A DNA stretch of 64,000 nt, taken from IMG/VR virus record IMGVR_UViG_3300020192_000001, positions 3,117-67,116 of that record; one strand, 5' to 3'. A program made the position numbers and the translations under genes. Below the pieces are notes generated by a model. The model had not been told where the DNA came from, searched no databases, and worked only from the letters and a program-made list of their open reading frames with translations. The stretch's first letter is position 1; each line of letters starts with the position of its first letter. This stretch comes from a virus. Positions 1 to 48,453 of the stretch are shown here, piece by piece.

Positions 1-36
1 CAGCTTGTAGGGGTTAGGTCCATCGGTCTGTTCGAT
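1..36 (-). repeat. attC-like site (partial)
   Basis: Ends ...ggtccatcggtctGTTCGAT, like the end of site 1260-1394; GTTCGAT pairs with ATCGAAC at 396. Confidence 0.75.
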
Positions 37-423
37 TTATATCTTGTCCAAGGTGCGCTAGACAGCATGGGCGTGGCTCTCGCTGACCATCATCACGAAT
101 GGAGTGAAGGCGAGCGGGAAATCTACGATCAAGCAACTGAAATAATTAGGGCTTCGGCTGGCGGTTGTATGGAGACTGATTCGTTGGGCTCAAAGAAACA
201 TTCTTCTCTGATGCCTTTGATTGAATTGATCCTTCCGTGCGGCCTAATTTCAGGCCGATTACTCGCGTTGGGGTATTCTCCTTGGCGAGTTGCTTTAGTT
301 CACGGACATCTTGCGGTGTCCACTGCTTTCCGGTGTTGCGTGTGCTTTTGCTCATGTTTTGTTGTGGGTGAATGGCGCGATAGGCTTATTTCATTATCGA
401 ACGACAAGGTGAGATGCCGATGA
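1..423 (+). CDS. Antisense read-through ORF across cassette 1 (5' partial)
   Basis: Frame open from base 1 to TGA 421-423; reads AAC 400-402 as Asn; ATGA overlap with next gene. Confidence 0.4.
146..355 (-). CDS. Small bacterial-type hypothetical protein (canonical cassette gene)
   Basis: 69 aa, RNTGKQWT...[15 protein letters not shown] resembles a conserved small bacterial protein; lies wholly within one cassette. Confidence 0.65.
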   Translation of the reverse strand: MSKSTRNTGKQWTPQDVRELKQLAKENTPTRVIGLKLGRTEGSIQSKASEKNVSLSPTNQSPYNRQPKP

Positions 424-498
424 CCGCCGAAATTCCAGCTTTGATTCCACAACCCGGCCACCCGGCGGGCAGCGGTTATCTCGACCGCCTGGTTGGGC
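396..498 (-). repeat. attC-like site
   Basis: ATCGAAC gacaaggtgagatgccg...cggttatctcgaccgcctg GTTGGGC imperfect inverted repeat. Confidence 0.85.
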
Positions 499-950
499 CG
501 AAACGCTACTGGGCCACGCCGCCCGAAATGATGGAGGTTCTCAATGCGGAGTTCGAGTTCGACTACGATCCTTGTCCGCACCCAAGGCCGGAAGGCTTCG
601 ATGGCCTGCAAGTCCCGTGGGGGAAACGTAACTGGGTAAATCCGCCCTTCACTGGCGAACCGCGAGTGCCCGGAAAGCGAAAGCTCGGGCCGGTGGCGTG
701 GCTGAGAAAGGCCGTAGCTGAACGGGAAATTGGAAACATGACCGTGCTGATACTGCCGATCTACAACGTGCGGGCGATCTCAATGGCGGAGGACTTTGGG
801 GCGGAAATCCGATACTTCGGGAAGCCTCAATGGCTGGCACTTGAAGACGGGCAACCGAACCCGGCGCGGAAATCAGATTGGCATCCGTGCGTGCTCATTA
901 TTCTTCTGCCCAACACGGAGCTGACCAGCCCGAAGGGAGATCAATCGTGA
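420..950 (+). CDS. Phage DNA N6-adenine methyltransferase (Dam-like)
   Basis: WATP, FDYDPCP, DGL..PW and VNPPF motifs; starts in one attC and ends in the next (alternative start 414). Confidence 0.85.
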
Positions 951-1022
951 GCAACGAGATTGCACCCTCGCCGACGCCGCAAGACGCAAACCCGAAGGGT
1001 TTGGTCGAGCGGCTGGTTGGAA
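908..1022 (-). repeat. attC-like site
   Basis: GCCCAAC acggagctgacca...tggtcgagcggctg GTTGGAA. Confidence 0.85.
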
Positions 1023-1068
1023 TCCTGATGGGCACCAAACAATTCCCGCCGATAGGCGGCACTAAAAT

Positions 1069-1329
1069 ATGAACATCGACGGACTCAGACAAGATATGGA
1101 GATCGCATTCCAACGGGTCACTCAATACACCCTAATCGAAGACGAGGTTGAGGCCGTCTACCTCGGACTGACTCGACTGCGAGAAATTGAAAAAGCGGCG
1201 GAGATCGGAGACATCGCAGAAGTTCAGGTTTTGCTCGGAATCGAAAAAGCCCAACTGGATTCCAACGTCCGCGATCACTTGCCCCGGAAAGCTGGCACGC
1301 CCGATGCCGATACAAAGGAGAACGTATGA
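1069..1329 (+). CDS. Hypothetical cassette protein
   Basis: ATGA-coupled ORF ending in the attC loop. Confidence 0.6.
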   Translation: MNIDGLRQDMEIAFQRVTQYTLIEDEVEAVYLGLTRLREIEKAAEIGDIAEVQVLLGIEKAQLDSNVRDHLPRKAGTPDADTKENV

Positions 1330-1394
1330 GCATCCAGAAACCTTCGCATCGAAAGTGCCAGCTTGGAGGGGTTAAGTGGATCGCTCTGTTCGCT
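1260..1394 (-). repeat. attC-like site (AACGTCCGCGATCAC family)
   Basis: TTCCAAC gtccgcgatcactt...aagtggatcgctct GTTCGCT. Confidence 0.88.
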
Positions 1395-1595
1395 TTATTC
1401 GTTTGTGTGAATTGTGCAACCACTGCTCCCGGCCATCATGTTGATCGTGGCAACGCAGTCAGGCTTGTTAATGTAGCTTTCGCTGGATACCGCAATTTTC
1501 TTGTGGTTGGCAGCATGAAATGTCCATCGCCACTGGCGAGAGACATCGCGGTAAACAACGTAATACCCAATCGGGTTTGGAGTGCTCATATATGA
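1326..1595 (+). CDS. Antisense read-through ORF over the DUF1508-like gene
   Basis: Starts in the attC loop after AAGGAG; ATGA overlaps at both ends. Confidence 0.4.
   Translation: MSIQKPSHRKCQLGGVKWIALFALFVCVNCATTAPGHHVDRGNAVRLVNVAFAGYRNFLVVGSMKCPSPLARDIAVNNVIPNRVWSAHI
1395..1589 (-). CDS. YegP/DUF1508-family protein (canonical cassette gene)
   Basis: YRD..RQWRWTF.AANHKKIA.SSESY..K.DC...I pattern; stop abuts the attC R'' box. Confidence 0.8.
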   Translation of the reverse strand: MSTPNPIGYYVVYRDVSRQWRWTFHAANHKKIAVSSESYINKPDCVATINMMAGSSGCTIHTNE

Positions 1596-1828
1596 ATACT
1601 GTTAGTGTGTTAGAAAAATCACCGGCCTATCAAAGGGCGGATAACTCAGCGCGGATTTTGACCGTGATCGAAACAACGAACATGACACGCGGAAACGGCA
1701 CTGAAGAAGACCCTGTGCGAGTCGTAACGCAATATTGGACTCTCGATGGAACGCTTCTTGTCGAAGTGGACTCATATTCTTCTGCGAACGACAAAGTCAC
1801 CAACAAGGGGAGCGAAAATGAGCACTGA
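1592..1828 (+). CDS. Hypothetical phage protein
   Basis: VIETT..RGNGTEEDPVRVVTQYWTLDG pattern; coupled start. Confidence 0.65.
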   Translation: MNTVSVLEKSPAYQRADNSARILTVIETTNMTRGNGTEEDPVRVVTQYWTLDGTLLVEVDSYSSANDKVTNKGSENEH

Positions 1829-1882
1829 ATCCACGCCAGAAGTCCCGCGCTCCCCGCAGTTTGGTGGACTGCTTGGTTCGGC
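1783..1882 (-). repeat. attC-like site
   Basis: TGCGAAC gacaaagtcaccaac...tttggtggactgcttg GTTCGGC. Confidence 0.85.
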
Positions 1883-2177
1883 ATTTATCGTCGTGTTCGA
1901 TGATGAGCAAGGTTTGTGCGTGCCGCTTGGGTGGGACGGCGAATGCAGGGGGGCCATCTGCTGCAACCAAGGAAAAGTAGCCTTGTTCCCTGACCGGAAC
2001 TCTGCCCGTCGCGCAATCAACATATCGGCAAAGTTTGCCGCGCTCCGAAAATCGCAAGGCATTCCAGAAAACACCGACTTCTCGCCGGAGTGCCGAAAAT
2101 CAATCCGTGTCATGGAGTGTATGCCGAACGCCCAAGATGAGGGACAGCCGGAAAAAGGATGCCGCCATGCAAACTGA
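1818..2177 (+). CDS. Hypothetical cassette protein
   Basis: Start in attC loop after AAGGGGAG; ends in next attC. Confidence 0.6.
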   Translation: MSTESTPEVPRSPQFGGLLGSAFIVVFDDEQGLCVPLGWDGECRGAICCNQGKVALFPDRNSARRAINISAKFAALRKSQGIPENTDFSPECRKSIRVMECMPNAQDEGQPEKGCRHAN

Positions 2178-2215
2178 GCGCGTTCCGGCTGTTCCTCTCC
2201 ATCGCCTTGTTCGCG
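2123..2215 (-). repeat. attC-like site
   Basis: GCCGAAC gcccaagatgagggacagccggaa...ttccggctgttcctctccatcgcctt GTTCGCG. Confidence 0.85.
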
Positions 2216-2448
2216 GAATTTTTAAGGAGGTGCTTATGCAAACATGGCGGAGAAAGCCCGCCACCATGAGAGGTCCGATCCCTCTTGTGCCTCTCCAATC
2301 GCCACTAAGGCTCGGTGCCCGCCGGTGCACAAATGCAAGTCCTGCCTCGCGAGCAGGGCATCCGGCAATCTTTTCAGCGAACGCCACAGTGGAGCCATGC
2401 GGCCGGGATCCGCGCTCCGAAATCTCGCCAATCACCAAATCAAAATGA
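2167..2448 (+). CDS. Hypothetical short cassette ORF
   Basis: Starts in attC loop; AAC 2380 in frame; ATGA overlap at 2445. Confidence 0.35.
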   Translation: MQTERVPAVPLHRLVRGIFKEVLMQTWRRKPATMRGPIPLVPLQSPLRLGARRCTNASPASRAGHPAIFSANATVEPCGRDPRSEISPITKSK

Positions 2449-2497
2449 CAACTCCAATAAAAAGCGGGGCCGCATTGGCTCCCACGGCTGGTTCTGC
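2376..2497 (-). repeat. attC-like site
   Basis: AGCGAAC gccacagtggagccatgcggcc...ggccgcattggctcccacggctg GTTCTGC. Confidence 0.85.
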
Positions 2498-2861
2498 ATC
2501 TCTTGTCGAGCGGCAGGCGCAAGAACCGAAATTCGAGATGCCGGGGTGGGGTAACTCCATCACCGCCGGAGAACTCATCACATTCATGCTTCAGCGCGAA
2601 GGCACGCGTGAGGAGGCCATGGAAACGCTGGCGCAAACTCTGGCTGATCTCGGTATCAGCGGCGAAGAACTTGCTCACTGGCAGCGGAAGCCGGGAATCT
2701 GTCACGACTGCGGGGAAACCGATAATCGAACGCATCGCGAATGGGCCGCAAAGGCCGAGAGATTCCCGACGACTCCAATCGAAATGTATCGCGGATACCT
2801 GAAGTCCGATGTGCAGAACGTCCCAAGTCAGAAATCGCCACTCGGAAGCGGCGGAAAATAA
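2445..2861 (+). CDS. Hypothetical cassette protein (CxxC)
   Basis: Start in attC loop; CHDC motif; ends in next attC. Confidence 0.55.
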   Translation: MTTPIKSGAALAPTAGSASLVERQAQEPKFEMPGWGNSITAGELITFMLQREGTREEAMETLAQTLADLGISGEELAHWQRKPGICHDCGETDNRTHREWAAKAERFPTTPIEMYRGYLKSDVQNVPSQKSPLGSGGK

Positions 2862-2934
2862 TCAAATAGCTATGAAAAATAACCTCATCAAAACCGCCGC
2901 AATAGTGGCGATTTACTGCACTGCTTGGTTCGGA
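2813..2934 (-). repeat. attC-like site
   Basis: GCAGAAC gtcccaagtcagaaatcgccact...agtggcgatttactgcactgcttg GTTCGGA. Confidence 0.85.
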
Positions 2935-3165
2935 TTTTCTCACGCGCAAGAGTCCTCTATCGCAAGCGATCTTATTGTGACCAGCGGCCACATTACCCCC
3001 GTGGATAAAATCACATTCTCGCCGGGTATCACCATAAACACCGTGACCGGCGAGGTGACGATCCCGAAAAACGTCGCAATCCCCGAAGCCGCACGCGCAT
3101 TCTGGGTCGCTGTGGCAAAGGCTTTCCCGGAAGTAAAAAAAGCCATGATGGAGGACGGGAAATGA
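2872..3165 (+). CDS. Putative exported protein; signal peptide encoded by the attC arm
   Basis: MKNNLIKTAAIVAIYCTAWFGFSHA-Q signal-peptide-like N-terminus. Confidence 0.6.
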   Translation: MKNNLIKTAAIVAIYCTAWFGFSHAQESSIASDLIVTSGHITPVDKITFSPGITINTVTGEVTIPKNVAIPEAARAFWVAVAKAFPEVKKAMMEDGK

Positions 3166-3169
3166 GTAA

Positions 3170-3290
3170 GCCGAACGCACAAGGCCACCAATCCCAGCCG
3201 GGAGCGAGCGTGGCCGCAAAAGAAGGGATTGAATCAAATGGAATCTAAAACTCTCGGCGGGCTGGGATTAGGTGCGCCGCTTTGTTCTGC
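3170..3290 (-). repeat. attC-like site
   Basis: GCCGAAC gcacaaggccaccaatcccagcc...ggctgggattaggtgcgccgcttt GTTCTGC. Confidence 0.85.
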
Positions 3291-3609
3291 TATCCTTCGG
3301 CTCACGCTGAAACGGAAGTGGTTCGACATGATCGCCAGCGGAGAGAAGCGCGAGGAATACCGAACCCCGAAAAGGTGGATTCTGTCGCGGCTGGAAGGGA
3401 AGGACTATGGATCGGTTGAATTTCGCAATGGCTATGGGAAAGACGTGCCCGTCGTTACGCTGGAATATCTCGGATGGAGCTATGGCACTGGCCGCCGCGA
3501 GTGGGGAGGCACCGGATACAAGGTTGCTGTGATCCATATGGGGCGGATTTTGAGTAAGCAGAACGCTGCCCATGAGCCACAGCGGCAGGAAGGCACCGAT
3601 GCCAACTGA
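3238..3609 (+). CDS. ASCH/PUA-like domain protein
   Basis: LTLKRKWFDMIASGEKREEYR and F.NGY motifs. Confidence 0.8.
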   Translation: MESKTLGGLGLGAPLCSAILRLTLKRKWFDMIASGEKREEYRTPKRWILSRLEGKDYGSVEFRNGYGKDVPVVTLEYLGWSYGTGRREWGGTGYKVAVIHMGRILSKQNAAHEPQRQEGTDAN

Positions 3610-3646
3610 CCGCGTTCCCGATGTTGGCTCGATGGGCTTGTTCGCG
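3558..3646 (-). repeat. attC-like site
   Basis: GCAGAAC gctgcccatgagcca...tggctcgatgggctt GTTCGCG. Confidence 0.85.
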
Positions 3647-3883
3647 GATGATGGTGATGTAATGATGGAGTTCTCGGGAGGGCGTCTGGACGGAATGAAA
3701 GTTCTGATTTCAGAATGGCCGCAAGACCTCGCTTGGCCGGGAACTGAGGTCATGGATAAACCGTCGGGGCAGATATATCGATATCATGCCACGGCATCAG
3801 TCCGCTACCCCATTTACACACATAGGCCGGATGATTCAGCGAACGCCGAGTCCAGCAACGGCGAAAAGGAGGCACGACCATGA
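3599..3883 (+). CDS. Hypothetical cassette protein
   Basis: FSGGRLDG motif; attC-to-attC ORF. Confidence 0.6.
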   Translation: MPTDRVPDVGSMGLFADDGDVMMEFSGGRLDGMKVLISEWPQDLAWPGTEVMDKPSGQIYRYHATASVRYPIYTHRPDDSANAESSNGEKEARP

Positions 3884-3923
3884 GTGAGCCGTTGCCGCCG
3901 CTTGCTGGGACGCTTGGTTCCGC
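3838..3923 (-). repeat. attC-like site (GAGTCCAGCAACGGCG family)
   Basis: AGCGAAC gccgagtccagcaacggcg-AAAAGGAGG..ATGA..-cgccgcttgctgggacgcttg GTTCCGC; near copies at 6918, 47732, 50375. Confidence 0.88.
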
Positions 3924-4164
3924 GGATGGTCACGCGGTAAGGTGGGCTACGCGGAGTAAGGGGCGTGCGCCGTTCCAAGAACCTCGATGGACCAAATGGC
4001 ACGCTACCAGCGATGATTGCCAGACTCGGTGTGGGCTGCCTATCATAATAGCCACGTCCGCCGCATTCACTCCTGAAACCGATGATGAGAGCAGGGTGGA
4101 TTGCCATGGCTGCTTGCAGCAGCTTAACGCTGAGCACTCCCACCCCGCGACAACCGATGATTGA
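3880..4164 (+). CDS. Hypothetical Cys/His-rich cassette protein
   Basis: KWH...TRCG...VDC..C putative zinc finger. Confidence 0.6.
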   Translation: MSEPLPPLAGTLGSADGHAVRWATRSKGRAPFQEPRWTKWHATSDDCQTRCGLPIIIATSAAFTPETDDESRVDCHGCLQQLNAEHSHPATTDD

Positions 4165-4209
4165 AGCACTCCCCTGCGACCCGCGTTCGGCTGCATCCGC
4201 TGGTTATAC
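4122..4209 (-). repeat. attC-like site (degenerate arms)
   Basis: GCTTAAC...GTTATAC; weak hairpin, but GTTATAC pairs with GTATAAC at 4404. Confidence 0.6.
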
Positions 4210-4393
4210 GGCCTTGACTCCGCAGCAGCTAAAGGCGCGCGCGATAATCGCCGGAGACCTATATCGCGAGGGCCGGATCGAACGCACAGAATGCTTCCGC
4301 TTGGAGGTGGACTCTGCGGTAGGGAGAGACTCCGGCCCGGTGAAGTTCAAGGAGAACCGTGACTATGCCGAATGGCTGGAGGAAAACTCGTAA
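4157..4393 (+). CDS. Hypothetical cassette protein
   Basis: Start within attC; TAATG overlap with a short leader ORF. Confidence 0.55.
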   Translation: MIEALPCDPRSAASAGYTALTPQQLKARAIIAGDLYREGRIERTECFRLEVDSAVGRDSGPVKFKENRDYAEWLEENS

Positions 4394-4403
4394 TGGGAAG
4401 GCC

Positions 4404-4533
4404 GTATAACTACCAAGTCACCAATTCCGCCAACCCTAAACCTTGAATACTAAAATGGACAATAAAACAACGAATGATACCCCCGAAGCCCAAACTCCCG
4501 ACTTGGCGGAATTGGGTGGACTGCCTGTTCGGA
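4404..4533 (-). repeat. attC-like site
   Basis: GTATAAC taccaagtcaccaattccgccaa...ttggcggaattgggtggactgcct GTTCGGA. Confidence 0.85.
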
Positions 4534-4757
4534 TTCTTTGGGCCGACCAACTCCAATGTGAAAATATGTCGCTGCGTAACGAGAACGCCGCTCTGCGCGA
4601 TGCGATAAATGCGTTGCGCGACTTCGTCGCTGGCAAAAGACACGATAACAGGAGCATTTCTGAAATTCTCAATGGGGCCATGGGTATTCCGAACGAACCA
4701 GTGGAGCTACCGCCGAATAGTGGCTCCAAATCCGAGAATGGCGTTGTCGGCGGTTAG
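4455..4757 (+). CDS. Hypothetical coiled-coil cassette protein
   Basis: attC-to-attC ORF; LRNENAALRDAI heptads. Confidence 0.55.
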   Translation: MDNKTTNDTPEAQTPDLAELGGLPVRILWADQLQCENMSLRNENAALRDAINALRDFVAGKRHDNRSISEILNGAMGIPNEPVELPPNSGSKSENGVVGG

Positions 4758-4776
4758 CTCGCACGCCTTGTTCATC
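4688..4776 (-). repeat. attC-like site
   Basis: TCCGAAC gaaccagtggagctaccgccga...tcggcggttagctcgcacgcctt GTTCATC. Confidence 0.85.
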
Positions 4777-4807
4777 CTCTTCCGAATCACCAACCAAACA
4801 CAAAAAA

Positions 4808-5029
4808 ATGAGCAAATACGAAAACATAAATCCGATTGAAAAACTGCACGCCGGGGAGCCATATTTCTTCCTCCGTGCTCAAGACATGCACTCCAGCTAC
4901 GCCGTGCGTCATTACGCCGAAGCTGTGGGAGTGCTCGACCCAAAAGCGAGAGCTGAATGTCTGGCTTTTGCTGCACGCATGGAGACATGGCAGAATGAAA
5001 ACCCCGACAAAGTAAAACAGCCCGATTAG
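4808..5029 (+). CDS. Conserved-looking small phage protein
   Basis: EPYFFLRAQD...AVRHYA...A.RME.WQ..N..KVK.PD pattern. Confidence 0.7.
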   Translation: MSKYENINPIEKLHAGEPYFFLRAQDMHSSYAVRHYAEAVGVLDPKARAECLAFAARMETWQNENPDKVKQPD

Positions 5030-5032
5030 TCG

Positions 5033-5165
5033 GATGAACGCACCGATCACCGATCACTCACCCCTGACCACTCAAAACCATGAATAAAATTACGACTCCC
5101 CCGAAGCCAGAAACCTCGACCCCAGCCTCGACAGGTGAGGGATTTGGTGGATCGGATTGTTCGGC
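5033..5165 (-). repeat. attC-like site
   Basis: GATGAAC gcaccgatcaccga...ttggtggatcggatt GTTCGGC. Confidence 0.85.
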
Positions 5166-5361
5166 TGATTTGGCGATACTCAGGAAAGAATGCGAACATC
5201 GCATCGAAGTGTGCCGGGTAAATATCCTAGAAGCTGGGTTTGCTGTTCGGCACATGAGCCCGCGCCGCGCCGCCGAGCAACTGGATCAATGTGAGCATTA
5301 CGCAAGGTTAGCGGCTTACGACGCTCGCGAACTGACACGTAGGCTTCTGCCGGACGCATGA
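5080..5361 (+). CDS. Hypothetical cassette protein
   Basis: Start in attC loop; ATGA overlap with the MTase. Confidence 0.55.
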   Translation: MNKITTPPKPETSTPASTGEGFGGSDCSADLAILRKECEHRIEVCRVNILEAGFAVRHMSPRRAAEQLDQCEHYARLAAYDARELTRRLLPDA

Positions 5362-5449
5362 GTGCTGGCACCGACATGAGCGCGAAAGACGCCGCCTTCA
5401 CGCTGGACAGTGCCGCTCATGGCGGTTGTCCAGCCACGACTTGTTATGC
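5349..5449 (-). repeat. attC-like site with mutated core (AAC>GAC)
   Basis: GCCGGAC...catgagcg...cgctcatg...GTTATGC; GCCGAAC expected from the GTTCGGC at 5159. Confidence 0.7.
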
Positions 5450-6221
5450 CTCTTCTGAGTTGCCGAAAACCTCCGAATCCATGCTTGCTCTGATGGGCAA
5501 ATACGCGCTTCCGCATGGCTACTGGTATTCGCCACGGGTGATGCTCTATCGTGGAGACTGCGAGGAAATCGCGCCTATGCTCAGTAAAGTGGTCGATGCT
5601 GTGATCTCTGATCCTCCTTATGGAATCGCGGTGAACACCCGCAACGCCACTCGCTCAAATACTCCACCACACTCAAGAACAGTCGTGGCATCCAAGAACT
5701 GGCAACCCGTGGAAGGTGACGATAAAGACTTCGATCCGGCGACGTGGTTAAAGTGGCAAAGGGTTGTCCTCTGGGGTGCGAATAACTACGCAAGCAGCCT
5801 GCCTGATTCACCGTCATGGCTCGCATGGAACAAGCGGACACCAGAAGGCTTCAAGAAGTCGCAAGTGGAACTCGCGTGGATGCGTGGCGCGGGGAAATGC
5901 TCCTATCACTTCGATCATCAATGGCACGGAGTATGCCGTGATTCTGAACAGGCCGAAGGAAGCCTCCATCCCACGCAAAAGCCGGTCGCGCTTATGGCAT
6001 GGTGCATGGAAAAGGCGAAAGTTCCCGATGGCGGACTCGTCCTTGATCCGTTCATGGGGAGCGGAAGCACGGGCATTGCAGCCATCCGCACTGGACGGCG
6101 ATTCATCGGCATCGAGAAAGATCCGATCCACTTCAAAACGGCGCTGGAACGCATCCAGCAAGAACTCGCCCAGGGGGATCTTTTTCTTGGGCATAACGCA
6201 AAGAGCACCTATGACGCCTGA
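5358..6221 (+). CDS. DNA N4/N6 methyltransferase (beta class)
   Basis: LYRGDC, SDPPY, HPTQKP and LDPFMGSGST motifs. Confidence 0.92.
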   Translation: MSAGTDMSAKDAAFTLDSAAHGGCPATTCYASSELPKTSESMLALMGKYALPHGYWYSPRVMLYRGDCEEIAPMLSKVVDAVISDPPYGIAVNTRNATRSNTPPHSRTVVASKNWQPVEGDDKDFDPATWLKWQRVVLWGANNYASSLPDSPSWLAWNKRTPEGFKKSQVELAWMRGAGKCSYHFDHQWHGVCRDSEQAEGSLHPTQKPVALMAWCMEKAKVPDGGLVLDPFMGSGSTGIAAIRTGRRFIGIEKDPIHFKTALERIQQELAQGDLFLGHNAKSTYDA

Positions 6222-6311
6222 CACCGCCACCCCGCTGCAAATGGAGGCCCATAACGTCGCCCCCGCTCCGACTCTCAACGGGGCGGCATTAGGTGACTCG
6301 CCTTGTTGGAC
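6191..6311 (-). repeat. attC-like site
   Basis: GCATAAC gcaaagagcacctatg...cattaggtgactcgcctt GTTGGAC. Confidence 0.85.
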
Positions 6312-6963
6312 ATCTTCTTGCGGGCGCGTGACGCTGTATCATGGTCGCTGGCAAGACCTGCTGCCGCTGCCTGTGGACGCTATAATCACAGATCAGCCTT
6401 ACGGCACTGGATGGATACGCGGAGGCGGGAAAAAGGAAGGTGAGTTCAAGCGCAGGACGGAGAAAGCAGAATGGGACATCTTTGATGTGTCGTGGATGGA
6501 ACGCGCTCCCGGCATCGTGGCGGCATTCTGCCCGACGCAAGGCGTATGGGAAATGTGCCTGCGGATGGAAACTCCCCACGTCCTGAAATACCTGAAAACG
6601 AATCCGGCACCATTCGGCGCGGATCGTGAGCCGATAGTTAGCAGCCGCCCGCTGAGTGGATCGTGGGAGAAGGAAGCCTACAACGGTGACAACCCGCTGC
6701 ATCCATGCCAGAAGCCGCTGCCGCTCATGGGCTGGCTCATCCACGAACTGACCACGGAAGGCCAAACGGTCTGTGATCCGTTCATGGGAAGCGCAAGCAC
6801 TGGAATCGCCTGCATCCGCGCAAACCGCCGCTTCGTGGGTATCGAACAAGACCAGACGCACTACGCCACGGCCCTCGCCCGAATCAAAACCGAACTCGGA
6901 CAGGGGGATTTATTCTTGTCCAACGTTGAGTCCAGCAACGGCGAAAAGGAGGCCCGGCCATGA
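6211..6963 (+). CDS. DNA N4/N6 methyltransferase (beta class, DQPY variant)
   Basis: TDQPY, HPCQKP and CDPFMGSAST motifs; start in attC loop. Confidence 0.88.
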   Translation: MTPDTATPLQMEAHNVAPAPTLNGAALGDSPCWTSSCGRVTLYHGRWQDLLPLPVDAIITDQPYGTGWIRGGGKKEGEFKRRTEKAEWDIFDVSWMERAPGIVAAFCPTQGVWEMCLRMETPHVLKYLKTNPAPFGADREPIVSSRPLSGSWEKEAYNGDNPLHPCQKPLPLMGWLIHELTTEGQTVCDPFMGSASTGIACIRANRRFVGIEQDQTHYATALARIKTELGQGDLFLSNVESSNGEKEARP

Positions 6964-7003
6964 GTGAGACGTTGCCGCCGTTTGCTGCGACGTTTGGTTG
7001 TGC
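6918..7003 (-). repeat. attC-like site (GAGTCCAGCAACGGCG family)
   Basis: GTCCAAC...GTTGTGC, near copy of 3838-3923. Confidence 0.88.
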
Positions 7004-7025
7004 TTTTTGAAATCTCCGAATCACC

Positions 7026-7316
7026 ATGAAAACATACAAACCAGAAAGCAGCTTCCAAGCTACCAGCGACGCATCGATGGTCTATAGCCTCCGACATACC
7101 GGATGGCAAAAAGGCAAGCAAGTGTGGTCCAATGATGTAGCCATATCAATCACCGCTCACCACCTGACGGACGAGGAGCGGGCCGACATCGCCCTAACCA
7201 TTCAGGGCGCGATGAACGCAAAATATCTGCACAACGTCCGCGATCACCAGCAGCCGCTTGCTTCTGGCGCGGGGGATGCAGGCAACCATGCAAGCCAAGG
7301 GGAGGAGTCACGATGA
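7026..7316 (+). CDS. Hypothetical cassette protein
   Basis: ORF ends within the attC loop with ATGA overlap. Confidence 0.55.
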   Translation: MKTYKPESSFQATSDASMVYSLRHTGWQKGKQVWSNDVAISITAHHLTDEERADIALTIQGAMNAKYLHNVRDHQQPLASGAGDAGNHASQGEESR

Positions 7317-7393
7317 AACTCCCCAGCAAGAAACGCAGCCCCCGTGCCAGAAGTGCCGCAGGCACGGCTGTTTGGTGGATCGCTCTGTTGGCT
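7229..7393 (-). repeat. Long attC-like site (AACGTCCGCGATCAC family)
   Basis: GCACAAC...GTTGGCT, 165 bp; near copy of 38475 and 38975. Confidence 0.88.
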
Positions 7394-22013: not shown

Positions 22014-23174
22014 ATGATCTACGTTTTCCCTGTATCCACATCGGACAGTTCACTCATTGATCCGCTCCATGCGGCCATCAAGCACCTTGGCGGAATGCAG
22101 GGGCGCAAGTGTGTGGCCATCGGCGACCAATCGGCCCGCGATGCGGTGGATTATTTGGCGGATCGCCTGGAAAACCTCAACGCGAAGGTGGAGAAACACA
22201 TTTTCCCCTTCACGTGCGAAGATGGCTGGCCGCGCGCCTGCAATCGCTATTTCACGGTGGCCGCTGCCCTCATGGCCAAGCAAGACGAGCCTTTTTATTA
22301 TTTTGAACTGGACAACACCCCGATCAAAGCGGGTTGGCTCGATAAAATCGAAGGGGAATACATGGCCGGTCTCGCGCGGGGCAAGCCGTTCATGGGGTAT
22401 CTGGTGCCGCACCGCGTCAACCGCAATGGCGTATGGTCCGACGATGGCAATGTGATGAACGGCTCCGGCGTTTATCCCTCCCTCTATGGGCATGTGTCGC
22501 TCCTGATCCGCGAAGTGGCACGGCAAAGCGTTCCTTGGGACGTGTATATGCGATGGGAGATGGTGAACGATTGCAAGGATGCCAACGATTTTCTCTTATT
22601 TAACTGGCACTCAACCAATTACCGATGGAAGGATTGCCTTGATGAGGCAACGGGAGCCACCGCTCCCCGGCTGGTTTGCGATATTGATAAACGCCCCGGC
22701 GGCATCTTGCACAACGGGAAATCCGATCCGGTGGAGTCGCGGCATTTTATCGTGCATGGGTGCAAGGATGGCTCGCTCTCCCGCATGGTCGTGGCGGGGG
22801 AGATCGCCGCTCCACCGATTACCAGTTTTGAGGAAGTTTCCATTCCCGCCACCCCGGCGGCGGGTTGGGACTCCATCAAAGATGAATCATTGCAGGGTGG
22901 ACAAGCCTGGTTAAGTCGCGAGTCCCATAAACTCGTCATCGAGGGTTCAAATCCCTCCCCTGCAACCAATTCAATCGCGAATGGTGCGCAGGGAGATCCT
23001 GCGACTCGGGGAAGAAAACCCCGGCATGAAACAAACCGATTGATCCCCGCTTCGGCCAAGAAAAAGAAAAAGCGCAAGCTGAACCTCTCCGAGGCTGAAC
23101 GCGCCCGACGCTCCGAACACGCCCGCAAGATGACCGAGGCCCGGCAAAATAAGATCGTGAGGATGGCCGCATGA
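22014..23174 (+). CDS. Glycosyltransferase-like protein with basic C-terminal tail; contains an embedded tRNA
   Basis: YFELDNTP..GWLD, MNGSGVYP, PWD and VHGCKDGS GT-A-like motifs. Confidence 0.6.
   Translation: MIYVFPVSTSDSSLIDPLHAAIKHLGGMQGRKCVAIGDQSARDAVDYLADRLENLNAKVEKHIFPFTCEDGWPRACNRYFTVAAALMAKQDEPFYYFELDNTPIKAGWLDKIEGEYMAGLARGKPFMGYLVPHRVNRNGVWSDDGNVMNGSGVYPSLYGHVSLLIREVARQSVPWDVYMRWEMVNDCKDANDFLLFNWHSTNYRWKDCLDEATGATAPRLVCDIDKRPGGILHNGKSDPVESRHFIVHGCKDGSLSRMVVAGEIAAPPITSFEEVSIPATPAAGWDSIKDESLQGGQAWLSRESHKLVIEGSNPSPATNSIANGAQGDPATRGRKPRHETNRLIPASAKKKKKRKLNLSEAERARRSEHARKMTEARQNKIVRMAA
22891..22968 (+). tRNA. tRNA-Met(CAT)-like gene, possibly pseudo (C at position 33)
   Basis: Acceptor TGCAGGG/CCCTGCA+ACCA, D-loop GG, anticodon stem CGAGT/ACTCG with CAT at 22926-22928, T-arm GAGGG-TTCAAAT-CCCTC. 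Confidence 0.75.
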
Positions 23175-28803: not shown

Positions 28804-29109
28804 ATGTCGCTGTATCCAGAAGGAACGGCAGCATCAACAGGGGATAGTTTACTGCGAACTTTCAGAAAACTCCTCGAACGGGCAATTGAACTTTACGGAG
28901 ACAATATGACTTCCCCTTTTCCCGAAGGAGTAACCCCCAGCACCGGCGACAATCTTGAGCGCACTGCGATCAAGCTACTGAGTGTGCTTAATGGATCCAC
29001 CCTTACCGCAGCAGGCTTTGCCTCGCTTGATCTATCATTGCTCCCGACATCAGACCCCGGCGGCGGCAAACCTTGGCGCAATGGCGGTTTGATGCAAGTC
29101 GGCCCATAA
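28804..29109 (+). CDS. Hypothetical protein with internal duplication
   Basis: YPEGTAASTGDSLLRTFRKLL / FPEGVTPSTGDNLERTAIKLL; C-terminal LPTSDP. Confidence 0.6.
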   Translation: MSLYPEGTAASTGDSLLRTFRKLLERAIELYGDNMTSPFPEGVTPSTGDNLERTAIKLLSVLNGSTLTAAGFASLDLSLLPTSDPGGGKPWRNGGLMQVGP

Positions 29110-29117
29110 ACAATCTC

Positions 29118-30788
29118 ATGAAAAAACTACTCAGCATTTTCTGTCTTCTTCCGGCTTTCGCATTTGCGGCCAGCCCTACTCTTGGGCCTGGCGGTGCATG
29201 GGGCACCCCAACAATCACCAGCGGCACGCTGCAAGGCACCACGGTCAACACCGGCACAATCAGCGGCGGGGCGTTTGTCGGCGACGGCTCGGGGCTCACT
29301 AGCGTCGGGGTAGTCACTGCCGATGGCGGGGGGAAATTGGGAACCAGCGCAAGCGCAACCACTGGCGGAGCCGTGGGGTATAACGCAATCGCAACCGCTG
29401 GCGGGTCCGTGGGAAGCGACGCAAGCGCAACCACTGGCGGAGCCGTGGGGCAGAGCGCATCCGCAACCACTGGTGGAGCCGTGGGGCAGAGCGCATCCGC
29501 AACCACTGGATTTGCTGGCGGCGTAGGAGCCATCGCGGACGCTGGCGGCGTCAACTTTTCCAGCAACGGCATCAGCAGCACCTATTCCGGCAGCGGCATT
29601 GCCATCAACGCCATCGAACTCGCTAGCTCTAACGGCGCAATCCCGCCATCACGCACGGCGCAGCGGACGACATTTTCCAACACGACTGCGACAATCTCCG
29701 CAGGGACGGCTTATCTCGGCCAGACGGGCACGATGTCCGCGTCGAGGGTCGTCAACGTGCCGCTGGCTAACTCAGTGCCCGCAGGCTACCAGCTGGTCAT
29801 CGCGGACGAGAGCGGCACCGTGACCAACGCCAACACGGTGGTCCTGACCCGCGCAGGGTCCGATTTGCTTAACAACGCGACCACGGAGGCGATGGCGTCC
29901 GCCTACACCCACCGTCGGTTGATTTCCAACGGCACCAACGCATGGCTATTTGACGCGGGCGTTGCGCGGCTCGGCGCGGCAAGCAACACCTTTTCTGGCA
30001 ATCAGGTTGTCAACGGCAACGCCACATTCGGCGATGCGGCGGCGGATGAGTTTGTCGTAGCCGATGACGACCCGCGATTTTCCAACCTAACGGCGGCAAC
30101 TTTCGTCGCGGCTGCCGATGCCACGCTTGCCGTAAACGGGTTGGTAATGACTAACCACATTCTAAGGCGACTCAGTGAGTCAAGCCCCGTCGTGGCGGGG
30201 GAATTTTCCTACACATTTGCCGGATCAGGAGCCAGTTTTCTCAGTGCAAGAATTGTCGATCTGCGCACCGGGAACACAGCGAGTTCGCTCGCCGCCGCGA
30301 GAACTCCCCACACTGGCCAAAGCGCATACATGAACGGCGTTGCATCTAATACTAGCATGAATTGGGCCGTGCCTGTTGCGTTCAGCTTCCGCGTGCATTG
30401 CTTTGACTTATCAGCAGACTCTGTGCTGCGGTGCTATCTGGGGCGGACGATTAGTTCCACGACAGATGGAGATTCTAGCACTCGTGCTATCGGCATCCGC
30501 ATGATCGGTCGCCGCCTTTGGCTGGAGCGGCACGACGGCACAACCCTTGCCTCCACGGACACCGGGTATGATTTCCCTAACGTCACGGGAGCGACGATCG
30601 GGGTGGCAGTATTGTCTGACGGTGCTGGAAATGTGTCGCTTAACGTAAACGGTGCCCTCATTACATCGGTCACCGGAGGTCCAACCACCGCATCAAATGC
30701 CTCCGAAGCAGGAATCTGGATGGCGGCATCAAATCCCTCCACAGACGGATTATCCGTCATTATCGGAGGCATCGTCGTTACTTATTAA
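29118..30788 (+). CDS. Tail fibre/adhesin-like protein with signal peptide
   Basis: G/A/T/S-rich, 12-aa SASATTGGAVG repeats, N-terminal MKKLLSIFCLLPAFAFA. Confidence 0.65.
   Translation: MKKLLSIFCLLPAFAFAASPTLGPGGAWGTPTITSGTLQGTTVNTGTISGGAFVGDGSGLTSVGVVTADGGGKLGTSASATTGGAVGYNAIATAGGSVGSDASATTGGAVGQSASATTGGAVGQSASATTGFAGGVGAIADAGGVNFSSNGISSTYSGSGIAINAIELASSNGAIPPSRTAQRTTFSNTTATISAGTAYLGQTGTMSASRVVNVPLANSVPAGYQLVIADESGTVTNANTVVLTRAGSDLLNNATTEAMASAYTHRRLISNGTNAWLFDAGVARLGAASNTFSGNQVVNGNATFGDAAADEFVVADDDPRFSNLTAATFVAAADATLAVNGLVMTNHILRRLSESSPVVAGEFSYTFAGSGASFLSARIVDLRTGNTASSLAAARTPHTGQSAYMNGVASNTSMNWAVPVAFSFRVHCFDLSADSVLRCYLGRTISSTTDGDSSTRAIGIRMIGRRLWLERHDGTTLASTDTGYDFPNVTGATIGVAVLSDGAGNVSLNVNGALITSVTGGPTTASNASEAGIWMAASNPSTDGLSVIIGGIVVTY
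29346..29510 (+). repeat. 36-bp coding tandem repeat (~4.5 units)
   Basis: agcgca..cgcaaccactggcggagccgtgggg units. Confidence 0.8.
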
Positions 30789-37558: not shown

Positions 37559-37897
37559 ATGCAAACAGTAACAGTATATGGTGCAAGTGATGACCTCATT
37601 GAAATCGAGGGGGACATCCGAGACGAAATCAGCGCAGACAGTGACATGCCGTGCAAGCTGGCATTCTCGGATGGGACTGTCCTTAACGTGGTATATGACG
37701 AAGATGGATGCTGGAGAGTAACCCGCATCGCCGCAGGAACGGCCGCAATGCAGAAGATCGAAGCCGAAGGGTCGGACACTGACAACTATTCCGACCGAGT
37801 TACTCTCAATGGTGACATCAAATGGGTGGTGGCAGGGTACTGTATTACAAAAGTTGAACCAACCAGCGGCGTGGCTGAGATGGAGGCACGACCATGA
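37559..37897 (+). CDS. Conserved-looking phage hypothetical protein
   Basis: VTVYGASDDLIEIEGDI motif. Confidence 0.7.
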   Translation: MQTVTVYGASDDLIEIEGDIRDEISADSDMPCKLAFSDGTVLNVVYDEDGCWRVTRIAAGTAAMQKIEAEGSDTDNYSDRVTLNGDIKWVVAGYCITKVEPTSGVAEMEARP

Positions 37898-38562
37898 GTG
37901 CGCCGTTGCCGACGCATGGTGCGGTGGTCGAAATCAATATGACGGACGGCTACATCAACACGCTCTTCAAGGCTACTAATTTTGGTCCTCAGGGAGAAAC
38001 TCCGAGAGGCCGACGCGGACTGATGGTCGAGTGTGTCCTGAAATATGCCAGCCTCTACGTAGACGGCAGCACGATAACCAATATATGCAAAAAGGCCGGA
38101 CTCATTGGCGATTGCGGCGCAACGCACGCTGGGATTCGCTGGGCATTCAAGCAAATGTACCGGAGCGGTGGAACAACGATCATAGAGCGACTCCATCCGC
38201 CGAACGTCGAGTCTTGGCAGCCCCACCCGAACCACAATAAATCTATGTCACAAAATCAAACGCCTGAATCACCGCAACCCGTAGCCGAAGCTGAGAGCTT
38301 GGTGGGGGTTGCCAACGACGTCTTGTTAGCACTAAGGATTCGCTCTTTGATAGCGGACAAGGAAATGGTCACGGCGACGGCTAATTTGGACCTTGCAAGA
38401 GGCGGGGAATGGCGACTCGACTATTCTGCATGGCAGGGGCAACTCAACGTGGAGATCGACGCTTTGTTTTCTGAGGCTAACGTCCGCGATCACCGGCAGC
38501 CGCTTGCTTCTGGCGCGGGGGATGCGGGCACCCATGCAATCCAGGGGGAGGAGTCACGATGA
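37894..38562 (+). CDS. Chimeric ORF reading through an attC (internal ATG 38245)
   Basis: No stop in attC 38199-38331, so two cassette ORFs are fused. Confidence 0.5.
   Translation: MSAPLPTHGAVVEINMTDGYINTLFKATNFGPQGETPRGRRGLMVECVLKYASLYVDGSTITNICKKAGLIGDCGATHAGIRWAFKQMYRSGGTTIIERLHPPNVESWQPHPNHNKSMSQNQTPESPQPVAEAESLVGVANDVLLALRIRSLIADKEMVTATANLDLARGGEWRLDYSAWQGQLNVEIDALFSEANVRDHRQPLASGAGDAGTHAIQGEESR
38199..38331 (-). repeat. attC-like site
   Basis: GCCGAAC gtcgagtcttggcagccccacc...ggtgggggttgccaacgacgtctt GTTAGCA. Confidence 0.85.
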
Positions 38563-38638
38563 ATCTCCCCGACAAGAAAGCATCCCCCGTGCCAGAAGTG
38601 CCGAAGGCACGGCTGTTTGGTGCATCGCTTTGTTCGCG
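38475..38638 (-). repeat. Long attC-like site (AACGTCCGCGATCAC family)
   Basis: GGCTAAC...GTTCGCG; near-identical to 38975-39138. Confidence 0.9.
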
Positions 38639-39062
38639 TTTTTCCTCTTCATTCACACGCAATCTCCCGCTTGCCATCTGGATAATATACCCATCGTTCC
38701 CAATCCGTTGGTTTCGGCCCTCGCTGCACAATGTAGAGAAACTTACCGTTGATCGCCTTTGCGATCTCTGCATTGACGGTGTGTATCCATTCGATATAGC
38801 GAGGAATAATCTCTCTCGCTGGCTTCCCCGCCCATTCTATCTTTTGAGCCTGAACCTGATTCCGACTCTTAAGATACTGAGAAACATCGAAATGAATTGT
38901 GACGGAAACGCCGCCACCAAAGTCGCATTGAAATGTGAGAATATCGTTCATGTTGAAAGCGCGACTATATTTTCAGCGAACGTCCGCGATCACCAGCAGC
39001 CGCCTGCTTCTGGCGCGGGGGATGCAGGCACCCATGCAATCCAGGGGGAGGAGTCACGATGA
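38559..39062 (+). CDS. Antisense read-through ORF
   Basis: attC loop to attC loop, stop-free opposite 38649-38951. Confidence 0.4.
   Translation: MNLPDKKASPVPEVPKARLFGASLCSRFSSSFTRNLPLAIWIIYPSFPIRWFRPSLHNVEKLTVDRLCDLCIDGVYPFDIARNNLSRWLPRPFYLLSLNLIPTLKILRNIEMNCDGNAATKVALKCENIVHVESATIFSANVRDHQQPPASGAGDAGTHAIQGEESR
38649..38951 (-). CDS. Hypothetical protein (canonical cassette gene)
   Basis: 100 aa filling the cassette; stop just before attC. Confidence 0.65.
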   Translation of the reverse strand: MNDILTFQCDFGGGVSVTIHFDVSQYLKSRNQVQAQKIEWAGKPAREIIPRYIEWIHTVNAEIAKAINGKFLYIVQRGPKPTDWERWVYYPDGKREIACE

Positions 39063-39138
39063 ATCTCCCCGACAAGAAAGCATCCCCCGTGCCAGAAGTG
39101 CCGAAGGCACGGCTGTTTGGTGGATCGCTCTGTTCGCA
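38975..39138 (-). repeat. Long attC-like site (AACGTCCGCGATCAC family)
   Basis: AGCGAAC...GTTCGCA. Confidence 0.9.
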
Positions 39139-39757
39139 TTTATTCTCGTTATTCTTCGATTGTTTTGATGTGGGCACCGTGAGGTCTCTTAGGAATAGCC
39201 GAGACAATATCGTGTATAGTGGGCTTCCCCCAGAGATGGTTAAGGAAGTGGACATGCGATCCGCCGATGAAATGGCCATCATCGCGACTGTCACGGGTAT
39301 CAAACGTAAGAAGGTGCCATATATCAGGTTTGTGAGCGCACACAAAGAAATGAAAAATGGCTCTTCCAGAATCCTTGGTAAGTTGATTGTAAAGCTGGCT
39401 AAGATCGTGCGGTGTTCCGATCTTCTCGCGAGCATTCACCCAAAGATGGTCAACGTTATTGTCCTCGAAGACGGGTGTGTGGAGATATCCGAGAGACCCG
39501 CACCCAATAATCATATGGGATATGTCCGAGTGTCGGAGTGTAAGTTGATGACAGAACTTCATCGCTTCGCGCTTCTTGGTTATGGCGAAAAGCTCCGTAA
39601 GATTCTCGGGAGGGCGATTTTTGTAAAACTCGAAAAATGCATCAATCACGGAAATTTGGATGACCTTATATTTTCAGCGAACGTCCCCGGTCAGGAATCC
39701 CCGCCTGCTTCTGGCGTGGGAGATGCAGGCAACCAATCACAAAAACCAACCAAATAA
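39059..39757 (+). CDS. Antisense read-through ORF
   Basis: 232 stop-free codons opposite 39149-39649. Confidence 0.4.
   Translation: MNLPDKKASPVPEVPKARLFGGSLCSHLFSLFFDCFDVGTVRSLRNSRDNIVYSGLPPEMVKEVDMRSADEMAIIATVTGIKRKKVPYIRFVSAHKEMKNGSSRILGKLIVKLAKIVRCSDLLASIHPKMVNVIVLEDGCVEISERPAPNNHMGYVRVSECKLMTELHRFALLGYGEKLRKILGRAIFVKLEKCINHGNLDDLIFSANVPGQESPPASGVGDAGNQSQKPTK
39149..39649 (-). CDS. Hypothetical protein (canonical cassette gene)
   Basis: 166 aa; WHLLTFD.RD...HF.GGSHVHFLNHLW; lower GC. Confidence 0.7.
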   Translation of the reverse strand: MIDAFFEFYKNRPPENLTELFAITKKREAMKFCHQLTLRHSDISHMIIGCGSLGYLHTPVFEDNNVDHLWVNAREKIGTPHDLSQLYNQLTKDSGRAIFHFFVCAHKPDIWHLLTFDTRDSRDDGHFIGGSHVHFLNHLWGKPTIHDIVSAIPKRPHGAHIKTIEE

Positions 39758-39843
39758 TAAAACATCATGAAAAACGAAAATAGCGCATCTCCCATGCCAG
39801 AAGTCCCGGAGGGACGGGGATTTGCTGGACCGGTCTGTTCGCG
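39676..39843 (-). repeat. Long attC-like site (related family)
   Basis: AGCGAAC gtccccggtcaggaatccccg...cggggatttgctggaccggtct GTTCGCG, with compensatory changes relative to 38975. Confidence 0.88.
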
Positions 39844-40102
39844 CCTCATTTTTTTACTTCCTGAAAGTGGTAGTGATACAATGGAGCACTCTGGCAATCG
39901 GCAAACTCTCTACAGTCAATTATCTCGTTGGTATCCTCTGCTTTCAGACTTATATGGCAGTTGGGAAAAATATCCAGAAGCACGGAAGGGGTGGGAAAAA
40001 AGACTGAATTTTCCCCTTGAAGCCGGAATTCTCCAATGGATTTCGGAAGGCCGTCCACGTAAAGAGTGGCCTCGCGAAGATGAACTAAGGGCTCGGCGAT
40101 GA
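39767..40102 (+). CDS. Antisense read-through ORF
   Basis: Starts in attC loop; ATGA relay at 40099. Confidence 0.35.
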   Translation: MKNENSASPMPEVPEGRGFAGPVCSRLIFLLPESGSDTMEHSGNRQTLYSQLSRWYPLLSDLYGSWEKYPEARKGWEKRLNFPLEAGILQWISEGRPRKEWPREDELRARR

Positions 40103-40136
40103 CTAAGTTGCACAATTCAGAATCGAATTCATTCAT
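39846..40136 (-). CDS. Hypothetical protein (canonical cassette gene)
   Basis: 96 aa filling the cassette; stop abuts attC. Confidence 0.65.
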   Translation of the reverse strand: MNEFDSELCNLVIAEPLVHLREATLYVDGLPKSIGEFRLQGENSVFFPTPSVLLDIFPNCHISLKAEDTNEIIDCREFADCQSAPLYHYHFQEVKK

Positions 40137-43779: not shown

Positions 43780-43782
43780 ATC

Positions 43783-48424: not shown

Positions 48425-48453
48425 ACCAACCAACAACCAGAACCAAAAATACC

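Follow-up and report, generated by a model that had tools for sequence, protein, structure and literature searches.

The DNA analysed here, the window, is a stretch of 64,000 nucleotides covering bases 3117–67116 of the single 67,116-bp virus record IMGVR_UViG_3300020192_000001; negative coordinates denote record positions 5′ of the window. The element under study, at 3838–3923 on the plus strand, is one of 28 hairpins that are probably attC recombination sites of a virulent-looking phage, organised in three arrays without an integrase (clusters of attC sites lacking integron integrases, CALINs). In these arrays, the polarity is inverted and the crossover (AA|C) phase-locked, and any order of the cassettes would rebuild an in-frame stop beside the next start.

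Between its boxes AAC (3842–3844) and GTT (3917–3919), the element at 3838 carries AAGGAGG (3866–3872), 7 nt, and then ATGA (3880–3883), and it scores 68.0 bits with the covariance model R1 described below. The open reading frame (ORF) 3572/3599–3883 stops at the TGA of this ATGA, and ORF 3880–4164 begins at its ATG. The initial annotation of the window had proposed that loops of this kind double as translation-coupling modules, and the motifs it named were found in place: AAGGAGG or AAGGAG followed by ATGA at 3838, 6918, and 47732, GGGGAGGAG-N5-ATGA at 7229, 38475, and 38975, and AAGGGAG-N7-GTGA at 908; the motif at 1260 is present as well and reads AAAGGAG-N5-ATGA. ORF 2872–3165 opens, as described, within the element 2813–2934 with a signal-peptide-like N-terminus. 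The relay at 49534 also has the layout attributed to it: its GTG shares bases with the upstream TGA and begins a frame of 20 codons, which closes with TGATG (49594–49598). The ATG at 49596 opens the PAPS-reductase-like ORF, whose match to phrog_424 (PHROG) begins at residue 3; a caveat to the relay is the second in-frame GTG of this ORF at 49527, which is an alternative start.

Detection and Structure of the Elements

The elements were collected with a covariance model, R1, built from the plus-strand alignment of the 19 elements then known to lie wholly within the window. In the window, R1 gave 25 matches at E < 1e-5, all of them on the plus strand and 6 of them new relative to the training set; the best match on the minus strand reached 10.5 bits (E 1.2). 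The first 3.3 kb of the genome yielded three further elements, none from the training set. The total is therefore 28 attC-like elements, all on the gene strand, in three arrays at about −947 to 8360 (21 elements), 38475–40275 (4 elements), and 47732–50460 (3 elements). At 70% identity they form 17 sequence families. The cassettes, counted from AAC to AAC, are approximately 250–1770 bp long and mostly contain one gene apiece; among the proteins encoded are an N6_N4 DNA methylase, another methyltransferase-like protein, and one resembling PAPS reductase. An earlier polarity- and bulge-aware scan, which missed the 3838 family and was superseded by R1, had given 14 matches on the plus strand and none on the minus strand of the window, against 0–2 per strand in 20 shuffles; in the related phages described below, it returned background only (17 matches on the plus and 23 on the minus strand in 1.15 Mb). 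A crude symmetric inverted-repeat scan was noisy and was dropped. Overall, the elements far exceed chance.

The predicted DNA folds of the elements follow one plan: a closing AAC/GTT helix (R box), an unpaired spacer of 3–5 nt, a 6-bp helix (L box), a long imperfect stem, and a variable top. Bulges were counted in the 20 elements known at that stage. In 18 of them, a single base, G in 13 and C in 5, protrudes from the 3′ arm at a distance of 11–12 nt from GTT. Twelve of these 20 elements have another 3′-arm bulge at 18 nt (11 T, 1 C), and in a further five, a single extra 3′ base occurs at 15–17 nt. AAC and GTT are invariant in all 19 aligned elements, and the next outward pair is standard in 14 of the 19. 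The attC core-box consensus is RYYY/RRRY, from which the flanking bases of the elements depart in part. The length from AAC to GTT ranges from 77 to 160 nt, and the loops are unrelated between families. Of the structural hallmarks of attC, the inverted core boxes, the spacer left unpaired, the pair of extrahelical bases, and a terminal structure that varies are all present; a search for an Rfam family matching the elements found none.

The initial annotation had suggested a comparison of covariation with codon position; in the elements, the structure is kept by compensatory change, and the peptides are not conserved. Across the 19 sequences, 87.7% of the cells in the 17-pair outer structure are paired, as against 74% in column shuffles and 20–49% in slid alignments, and the 46 double-sided changes in this structure were reached by none of 500 shuffles. 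In helix 2, 87.9% of the cells are paired, and 8 of the 12 pairs have changed on both sides. The arm peptides vary, and the spacer length also varies between families, shifting the frame relative to the helix; the right arms of 38475 and 38975 are read in a frame other than that of 7229 owing to a 1-nt indel, at 87–97% nucleotide identity. The constraint acts on the structure and on the openness of the frame, not on the peptide.

Relation to Known attC Sites and Polarity

On plasmid R388 (33.9 kb), R1 found exactly the two real attCs (35.5 and 33.4 bits; E 4e-8 and 2e-7, respectively), the next match having an E of 1. Both cassettes of this plasmid, dfrB2 and orfA, lie on the plus strand; read there, their attCs have the extra bases in the 5′ arm. 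R1 matched both attCs on the minus strand, opposite the two cassettes; the bottom strand of the R388 attCs has the same layout of extrahelical bases as the phage elements. In the CALIN of phage TJE1, validated experimentally according to the available text of Qi et al. (PMC9892861), R1 matched the junction after the methyltransferase gene (27.9 bits, E 1e-5), again on the strand opposite the genes, and gave a second, weak match.

By this reciprocal sequence-and-structure test, the phage elements are attC-like, and the polarity of the phage arrays is inverted relative to R388 and TJE1: because R1 matches the R388 and TJE1 attCs opposite their genes, the gene strand of the phage corresponds to the attC bottom strand. 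The canonical arrangement, with an ORF on the top strand and an attC at its 3′ end, was not found in the phage. Since the genes lie on the bottom strand, the crossover would fall in the 5′ box (AA|C), and a cassette would begin with its own hairpin and end just before the next one. The initial annotation had placed the cassette boundary on the right arm, and this placement has to be moved to the left AAC box. As it stated, the right arm encodes the N-terminus of the next protein; both this N-terminus and the loop start form part of the cassette that carries the gene body.

Reading Phase and Stop/Start Junctions

Of the three frames, the one with AAC as a codon (the AAC frame) stays open furthest upstream in 27 of the 28 elements, the exception being 49498, and in all 18 distinct elements of related phages. 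The latter count leaves out 10 of 28 hits that duplicate others (L138 does not differ from L137, and four L139 and L140 sites repeat L137 sites). With families treated as independent, the binomial probability of at least 16 of the 17 families having the AAC frame as the longest at a chance of 1/3 is 2.7e-7. The phase of the loop start relative to the GTT of the right box is not fixed (phases 0, 1, and 2 in 4, 8, and 5 cases, respectively). The crossover is phase-locked at the left AAC box and not at the right box.

A stop in the AAC frame occurs in the loop, 7–27 codons after AAC, in 27 of the 28 elements, with 40161 being read straight through. Within −8 to +13 nt of the stop, 24 of the 28 elements have a start: stop and start overlap by 4 nt (ATGA, GTGA, or TTGA) in 13 elements, and the start is 8 nt before the stop in 7, 5 nt before it in 2, and 12–13 nt after it in 2. 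Loop starts open 20 ORFs of at least 41 codons. Three genes supported by homology, those of the N6_N4 methylase, the phrog_111 methyltransferase, and the phrog_424 PAPS reductase, cross AAC and stop in the loop. In related phages, stop and start overlap in 9 of the 18 elements (8 by 4 nt and one ATG by 11 nt), and in another 6 the start lies at +7 to +27. The proposal that both arms are translated and that stop meets start in the loop is thus borne out in the phage elements and in the related phages.

It had been pointed out in the initial annotation that true starts mapping outside the attC would speak against its interpretation. There are true starts within the hairpins, because the methyltransferase-like ORF 420–950 has no possible start outside the element, between the hairpin and the conserved motif. 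The geometry of termination–reinitiation, in which a stop overlaps or adjoins the downstream start, is present, and a ribosome hand-over at these junctions is plausible.

Natural Rearrangements and Related Phages

Four other metagenome runs hold the array of this phage, and joints between AAC boxes were read from short contigs of runs X3, X4, and X6. The AAC-to-AAC joints 1786>7932, 3560>3841, 7931>8239, and 8539>7932 involve only 3–6 shared letters, and a fifth joint leads out of the 8239 AAC box and into a hairpin of the 3558 type. From these joints it follows that cassette 3562–3841 was lost at its place, where it is missing in runs X3 and X4, and that the order of cassettes 7932 and 8239 was altered. 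Seven of the 12 listed joints were set aside as uninterpretable, either because the intervening letters were not known or because the matches were to other repeat copies; the joints 1838>3840, 1882>6955, 2935>3562, and 3901>7233 and those of the 7229 region were not counted as rearrangements.

Crossover at the left AAC box is supported by independent lines, the phase lock and the natural rearrangements, and the elements are used as recombination sites in nature. Together, the attC anatomy, the cross-detection of real attCs, and the rearrangements at the AAC box uphold the initial identification of the hairpins as attC-type recombination sites.

Relatives of the phage were found by an alignment-based primase scan of viral contigs; a scan with a single primase protein found nothing. 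In the relatives, 2–6 attC-like sites are grouped in a single cluster and lie without exception on the gene strand (28 of 28 R1 hits in the first set, and one further scan), and the same junction layout recurs in phages whose primase is only 42–56% identical. Phages L137, L139, and L140 have backbones 94–99% identical (about 97% for L137/L139) and differ in cassette content. As far as the AACG of one element, L137 and L139 have the same sequence; beyond it, their hairpins and genes differ. An extra cassette of approximately 823 bp in L139, bounded by AAC-type boxes and consisting of an attC and a 279-codon ORF, is inserted at the AAC of an element otherwise identical in L137, and this ORF reads across the next box and ends at the stop of the resident loop.

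No tyrosine recombinase was found in four of the five related records. Phage L130 encodes a short (189 aa) Xer-like tyrosine recombinase at 8593–9162 (+), about 3 kb beyond its two attC-like sites; this protein scores far below every NCBIfam cut-off and was rejected as an integron integrase. In viral contigs, the pattern of the 3838 family had no match, and that of the 7229 family had 4 matches, with at least 120 more in genome contigs; these had no AA...GTT context and were taken as chance matches in GC-rich genomes.

Proposed Mechanism and Alternative Explanations

The interpretation of the elements as recombination sites is strong. Recombination would be carried out by an integron integrase, presumably that of the host. 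A cassette would begin at the C of the left AAC box, with its own attC hairpin first; the ribosome-binding region and start codon would lie in its loop, which is free in sequence, followed by the right arm and the gene body. Usually the cassette would have no stop of its own: its ORF would cross the next AA|C, with AAC as a codon, and end in the loop of the neighbouring cassette, at or beside the start of the latter, the C-terminal tail of the upstream protein being supplied by the neighbour. Because cassette ends and attC beginnings share one phase, excision and reinsertion in any order would rebuild an in-frame stop beside the next start, and the chain would stay translationally linked. Ribosomes ending in the loop would reinitiate there, or would open the hairpin for the next gene, and the need for such linkage could be the reason why the phase is kept.

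Several observations weigh against this proposal. Searches of the whole 67-kb record gave no match to an integron integrase (TIGR02249) or to another tyrosine recombinase (PF00589), and a search of the phage for a Y1 transposase was negative. Of the parts that make up a complete integron (integrase gene, attI, and promoter), the integrase is missing, which places the phage arrays in the CALIN class. No bacterial integron with the same attC families appeared among the matches listed, which were swamped by chance hits. The shorter contig side of the joints is 25–64 letters long, and their resolution is a few bases. Four of the 28 elements (4688, 7928, 40161, and 50375) have no start near the stop, and four loop starts (−906, 6960, 47774, and 49534) open only 16–33 codons. 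In the RNA folds, the start codons are fairly open, with a mean unpaired probability of 0.63 (0.44 for the upstream 9 nt, the Shine–Dalgarno region), and melting by upstream ribosomes, as envisaged in the initial annotation, may not be needed. In a crude gene chain, 4-nt overlaps occur at 28 of 94 junctions, 22 of these 28 being away from the elements, and the loop overlaps may just reflect the compact gene style of the phage.

These last points would be expected if the attCs are real and their stop/start layout has no special role, reflecting tight packing, with the phase only avoiding long aberrant C-terminal extensions. Overlaps elsewhere in the genome, the unconserved tail and N-terminal peptides, the 1-nt indel between 7229 and 38475, the 16–24 codons opened at 6960, 47774, and 49534, and the largely unpaired start codons all fit such an explanation, which we regard as unlikely but as deserving weight. 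What it does not account for is the phase lock in 27 of 28 and 18 of 18 elements across 17 families; moreover, the stop beside the start in 24 of 28 loops, with the same arrangement in divergent phages, argues for selection on the junction itself, and avoidance of read-through alone would not put a start at the stop. The distinguishing feature of the elements is the location of stop and start within a recombination site, in its loop of free sequence, combined with the phase lock of the crossover. A different origin of the shuffling, improbable in our estimation, is homologous or microhomology recombination between the hairpin repeats, performed by the exonuclease and annealing functions of the phage, with no integrase. 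Homology-based shuffling is the mechanism proposed for the promoter stem-loops of T4-type phages. Here, however, the AAC joints share 3–6 letters and link different families at the same box position, compensatory change has preserved the box spacing and the extrahelical bases, and R1 cross-detects real attCs, even though the phage encodes an exonuclease (phrog_69) and no integrase, long identical stretches exist within element families, and the limits of some differences between related phages fall outside elements.

It is very improbable that the hairpins act only as RNA, whether in processing, termination, or attenuation between early genes, and that their likeness to attC is incidental. As RNA they are predicted to be very stable (−23 to −96 kcal/mol), and T-rich runs follow several right boxes, but neither the rearrangements at AAC nor the strand-specific cross-detection of real attCs would be explained in this way. 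A terminator scan, limited to loops of 3–8 nt, did not list the elements and gave counts near the shuffle level, and there is no Rfam match. One of the five plus-strand promoter-like matches of a promoter scan lies within an element, and nothing in it was specific. No RNA run was found among the sequencing runs holding the stretch. Taken together, we retain attC sites in arrays of inverted polarity as the probable explanation. As a tentative extension, in which we have less confidence, we propose a plug-and-play integron of inverted polarity in a lineage of phages without an integrase: cassettes bearing stop-less ORFs would be shuffled by a host integrase with the coupling of a long chain of small genes, poor in promoters, being kept, and the element would be selected at once as a single-stranded DNA site, as coding arms, and as a hand-over point.

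Features of the Arrays

The elements of the window other than that at 3838, together with the array features referred to above, are as follows; scores are those of R1.

−98 to 36 (+): attC-like, only the 3′ part in the window (begins before it); 55.5 bits (L196 3018–3152); ATGA overlap at −32
396–498 (+): attC-like; 62.5 bits; upstream stop TGA 421 overlaps ATG 420
420–950 (+): DNA-methyltransferase-like ORF; phrog_111 match at residues 30–113
908–1022 (+): attC-like; 44.2 bits; GTGA overlap at 947
1260–1394 (+): attC-like; 55.9 bits; ATGA overlap at 1326; right arm encodes a hydrophobic N-terminus
1783–1882 (+): attC-like; 80.6 bits; start 1818 is 8 nt before stop 1826; joint 1786>7932 in run X6
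2123–2215 (+): attC-like, outside the training set; 40.1 bits; start 2167 is 8 nt before stop 2175
2376–2497 (+): attC-like, outside the training set; 28.9 bits; ATGA overlap at 2445
2813–2934 (+): attC-like; 56.7 bits; stop TAA 2859, start ATG 2872 (+13)
3170–3290 (+): attC-like, outside the training set; 42.9 bits; start 3238 is 8 nt before stop 3246
3558–3646 (+): attC-like; 52.0 bits; start 3599 is 8 nt before stop 3607
4404–4533 (+): attC-like, outside the training set; 34.5 bits; TTGA overlap at 4443, or ATG 4455 at +11
4688–4776 (+): attC-like; 53.1 bits; upstream ORF stops inside (TAG 4755), next start outside at 4808
5033–5165 (+): attC-like; 57.1 bits; upstream gene ends before the element (5029); loop start 5080
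5358–6221 (+): N6_N4 DNA methylase ORF; Pfam PF01555; ends within element 6191–6311
6191–6311 (+): attC-like, outside the training set; 32.0 bits; start 6211 is 8 nt before the stop
6918–7003 (+): attC-like, 3838 family; 68.7 bits; ATGA 6960 opens 16 codons only; next gene start 7026
7229–7393 (+): attC-like; 76.1 bits; ATGA overlap at 7313
7928–8026 (+): attC-like, outside the training set; 39.3 bits; loop without a start; cassette 7932–8238 placed elsewhere in runs X3 and X4
8235–8360 (+): attC-like; 61.2 bits; starts 8261/8270/8279 around stop 8275
8540–8542 (+): bare AAC site without a hairpin at the end of array 1; CTAAC/AGGTTG context (8536–8545); linked in runs X3 and X4 to the AAC box of cassette 7932
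38475–38638 (+): attC-like; 73.3 bits; ATGA overlap at 38559
38975–39138 (+): attC-like; 77.4 bits; ATGA overlap at 39059
39676–39843 (+): attC-like; 71.3 bits; stop TAA 39755, start 39767 (+12)
40161–40275 (+): attC-like; 62.9 bits; ORF 40135–40848 reads through in the AAC frame, no loop stop
47732–47817 (+): attC-like, 3838 family; 71.1 bits; ATGA 47774 opens 24 codons; then a repeated hairpin and TTGAC block
49498–49584 (+): attC-like; 69.4 bits; GTGA 49534, 20 codons to TGATG at start 49596
50375–50460 (+): attC-like; 67.3 bits; PAPS-reductase-like ORF stops in the loop (TGA 50412); no long ORF starts there

The bare AAC at 8540 may be the original insertion site of array 1. Directly 3′ of two attCs of the 3838 family, there are copies, 92% identical, of a 75-nt block (47789–47863 and 50432–50506) that contains a small GC hairpin, an A-rich stretch, and TTGAC; this block is a candidate portable promoter region, and the 2.6 kb separating the two copies resemble a single large insert. 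At the start of ORF 37894–38562 (37855–37933), where an ATGA overlaps with the preceding gene, about 30 nt are near-identical to the loop and right arm of 3838-family elements; this region has no left arm, and it may be either a decayed attC or the source of the 3838-family loop.

Genome Context

The virus record has a 127-nt terminal overlap and is rated complete, and all long ORFs of the window lie on the plus strand. No PHROGs family was found for 7 of the 10 large backbone proteins tried and no Pfam match for 9 of 10 cassette ORFs, and a megablast comparison of window positions 1–9000 with GenBank phages gave no match. The following backbone genes were assigned from PHROGs.

41794–43020 (+): exonuclease, phrog_69
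43329–45266 (+): helicase
45263–46921 (+): primase/helicase

The codon-usage score is too noisy for small cassette ORFs such as 3880–4164. By crude scoring, backbone genes are mostly without a recognisable Shine–Dalgarno motif, and many cassette starts have such a motif or an A-rich leader; this comparison hints at weak Shine–Dalgarno use by the host. A tRNA-Met (CAT) gene was called at 22891–22968 (+) by Rfam (54.5 bits) and ARAGORN, within the span of the 386-codon ORF 22014–23174; this ORF looks strongly coding and so conflicts with the tRNA-Met call, one of the two calls being doubtful. One ORF of approximately 3100 codons extends over 54032–63355 (+), with an unusually high GC skew at its 5′ side (0.37 in 54001–56000) and internal repeats about 500 nt apart (58719/59217 and 59160/59718). 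Within ORF 29073–30788, a 36-nt (12-codon) unit is present in five tandem copies at 29338–29553 (+).

Significance and Comparison with Known Systems

In the usual view, an integron cassette is a promoterless gene followed by a non-coding or barely coding attC, and how distal cassettes are translated past the hairpins is an open question in the field. In the phage arrays, the recombination site is part of the coding and translation-start architecture, with one phase across many attC families and divergent phages, and the cassettes are seen to move in natural populations. If the coupling is functional, it would provide a simple rule for keeping each newly acquired gene of a mobile cassette expressed in any order, and it would show virulent phages exploiting host integrases to shuffle accessory genes. 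The layout could serve as a design template for reorderable synthetic operons, and the elements offer a large, easily assayed set of attCs with defined extra functions in their loops.

Promoter-early stem-loops of T4-type phages are likewise repeated, stand between small accessory phage genes, and are linked to gene shuffling. They bear promoters and recombine by homology, whereas the elements described here have attC anatomy and breakpoints at one position, and one of five promoter-like matches on the plus strand falls in an element.

The closest counterparts are the CALINs of phages, whose recombination by IntI1 has been published (Qi et al. 2023, PMC9892861). As far as the available text of that study goes, they are alike in their imperfect AAC/GTT hairpins with an unpaired spacer, two extrahelical bases, and a variable loop, in their co-oriented arrays with about one ORF per cassette, in their methyltransferase cargo, and in the lack of a phage integrase. 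They differ in size, TJE1 having 3 attC sites and 4 ORFs against the 28 sites in three arrays found here (at least 2 sites per CALIN are required in the same text). The polarity differs as well: the genes of the present phage lie on the bottom strand and those of TJE1 and R388 on the opposite one, and the sites described here lie within coding sequence and are phase-locked.

The bare AAC at 8540 (GTT on the other strand) fits the GWT consensus given for genomic insertion sites, attG, in the accessible part of bioRxiv 10.1101/2022.09.11.507474, and by analogy an integrase might use it. In class 1 arrays, translation of a cassette affects expression of the next one (bioRxiv 10.1101/2024.03.26.586746); in the portion of that study available, attCs are minor determinants, the effect is mostly at the mRNA level, and an overlap of stop and start in the loop is not described. 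In the full-text literature, to the extent that the texts were accessible, no description was found of arrays of inverted polarity with a phase-locked crossover and gene starts within their own attC.

The translational aspect has its nearest parallel in ORF-11/ORF-18 of attI1 and in short ORFs within attC, which relieve the hairpin by termination–reinitiation (Hanau-Bercot 2002; Jacquier 2009, as cited in the available text of PMC8876359). The statement in the initial annotation that classical attCs are non-coding is therefore too strong, since by the same account short ORFs in attC and ORF-11 in attI1 aid downstream translation. In both cases, as that text presents them, a short translated frame crosses the site, its stop comes from the neighbouring cassette, and ribosomes are proposed to restart. 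In the systems reported there, however, the arrangement concerns attI1, or occasional attCs of canonical polarity, and helps cassettes without a ribosome-binding site. In the phage, by comparison, almost all attCs are arranged in this way, the proteins that span the crossover point are full-length, and the next gene starts within the attC that belongs to it.

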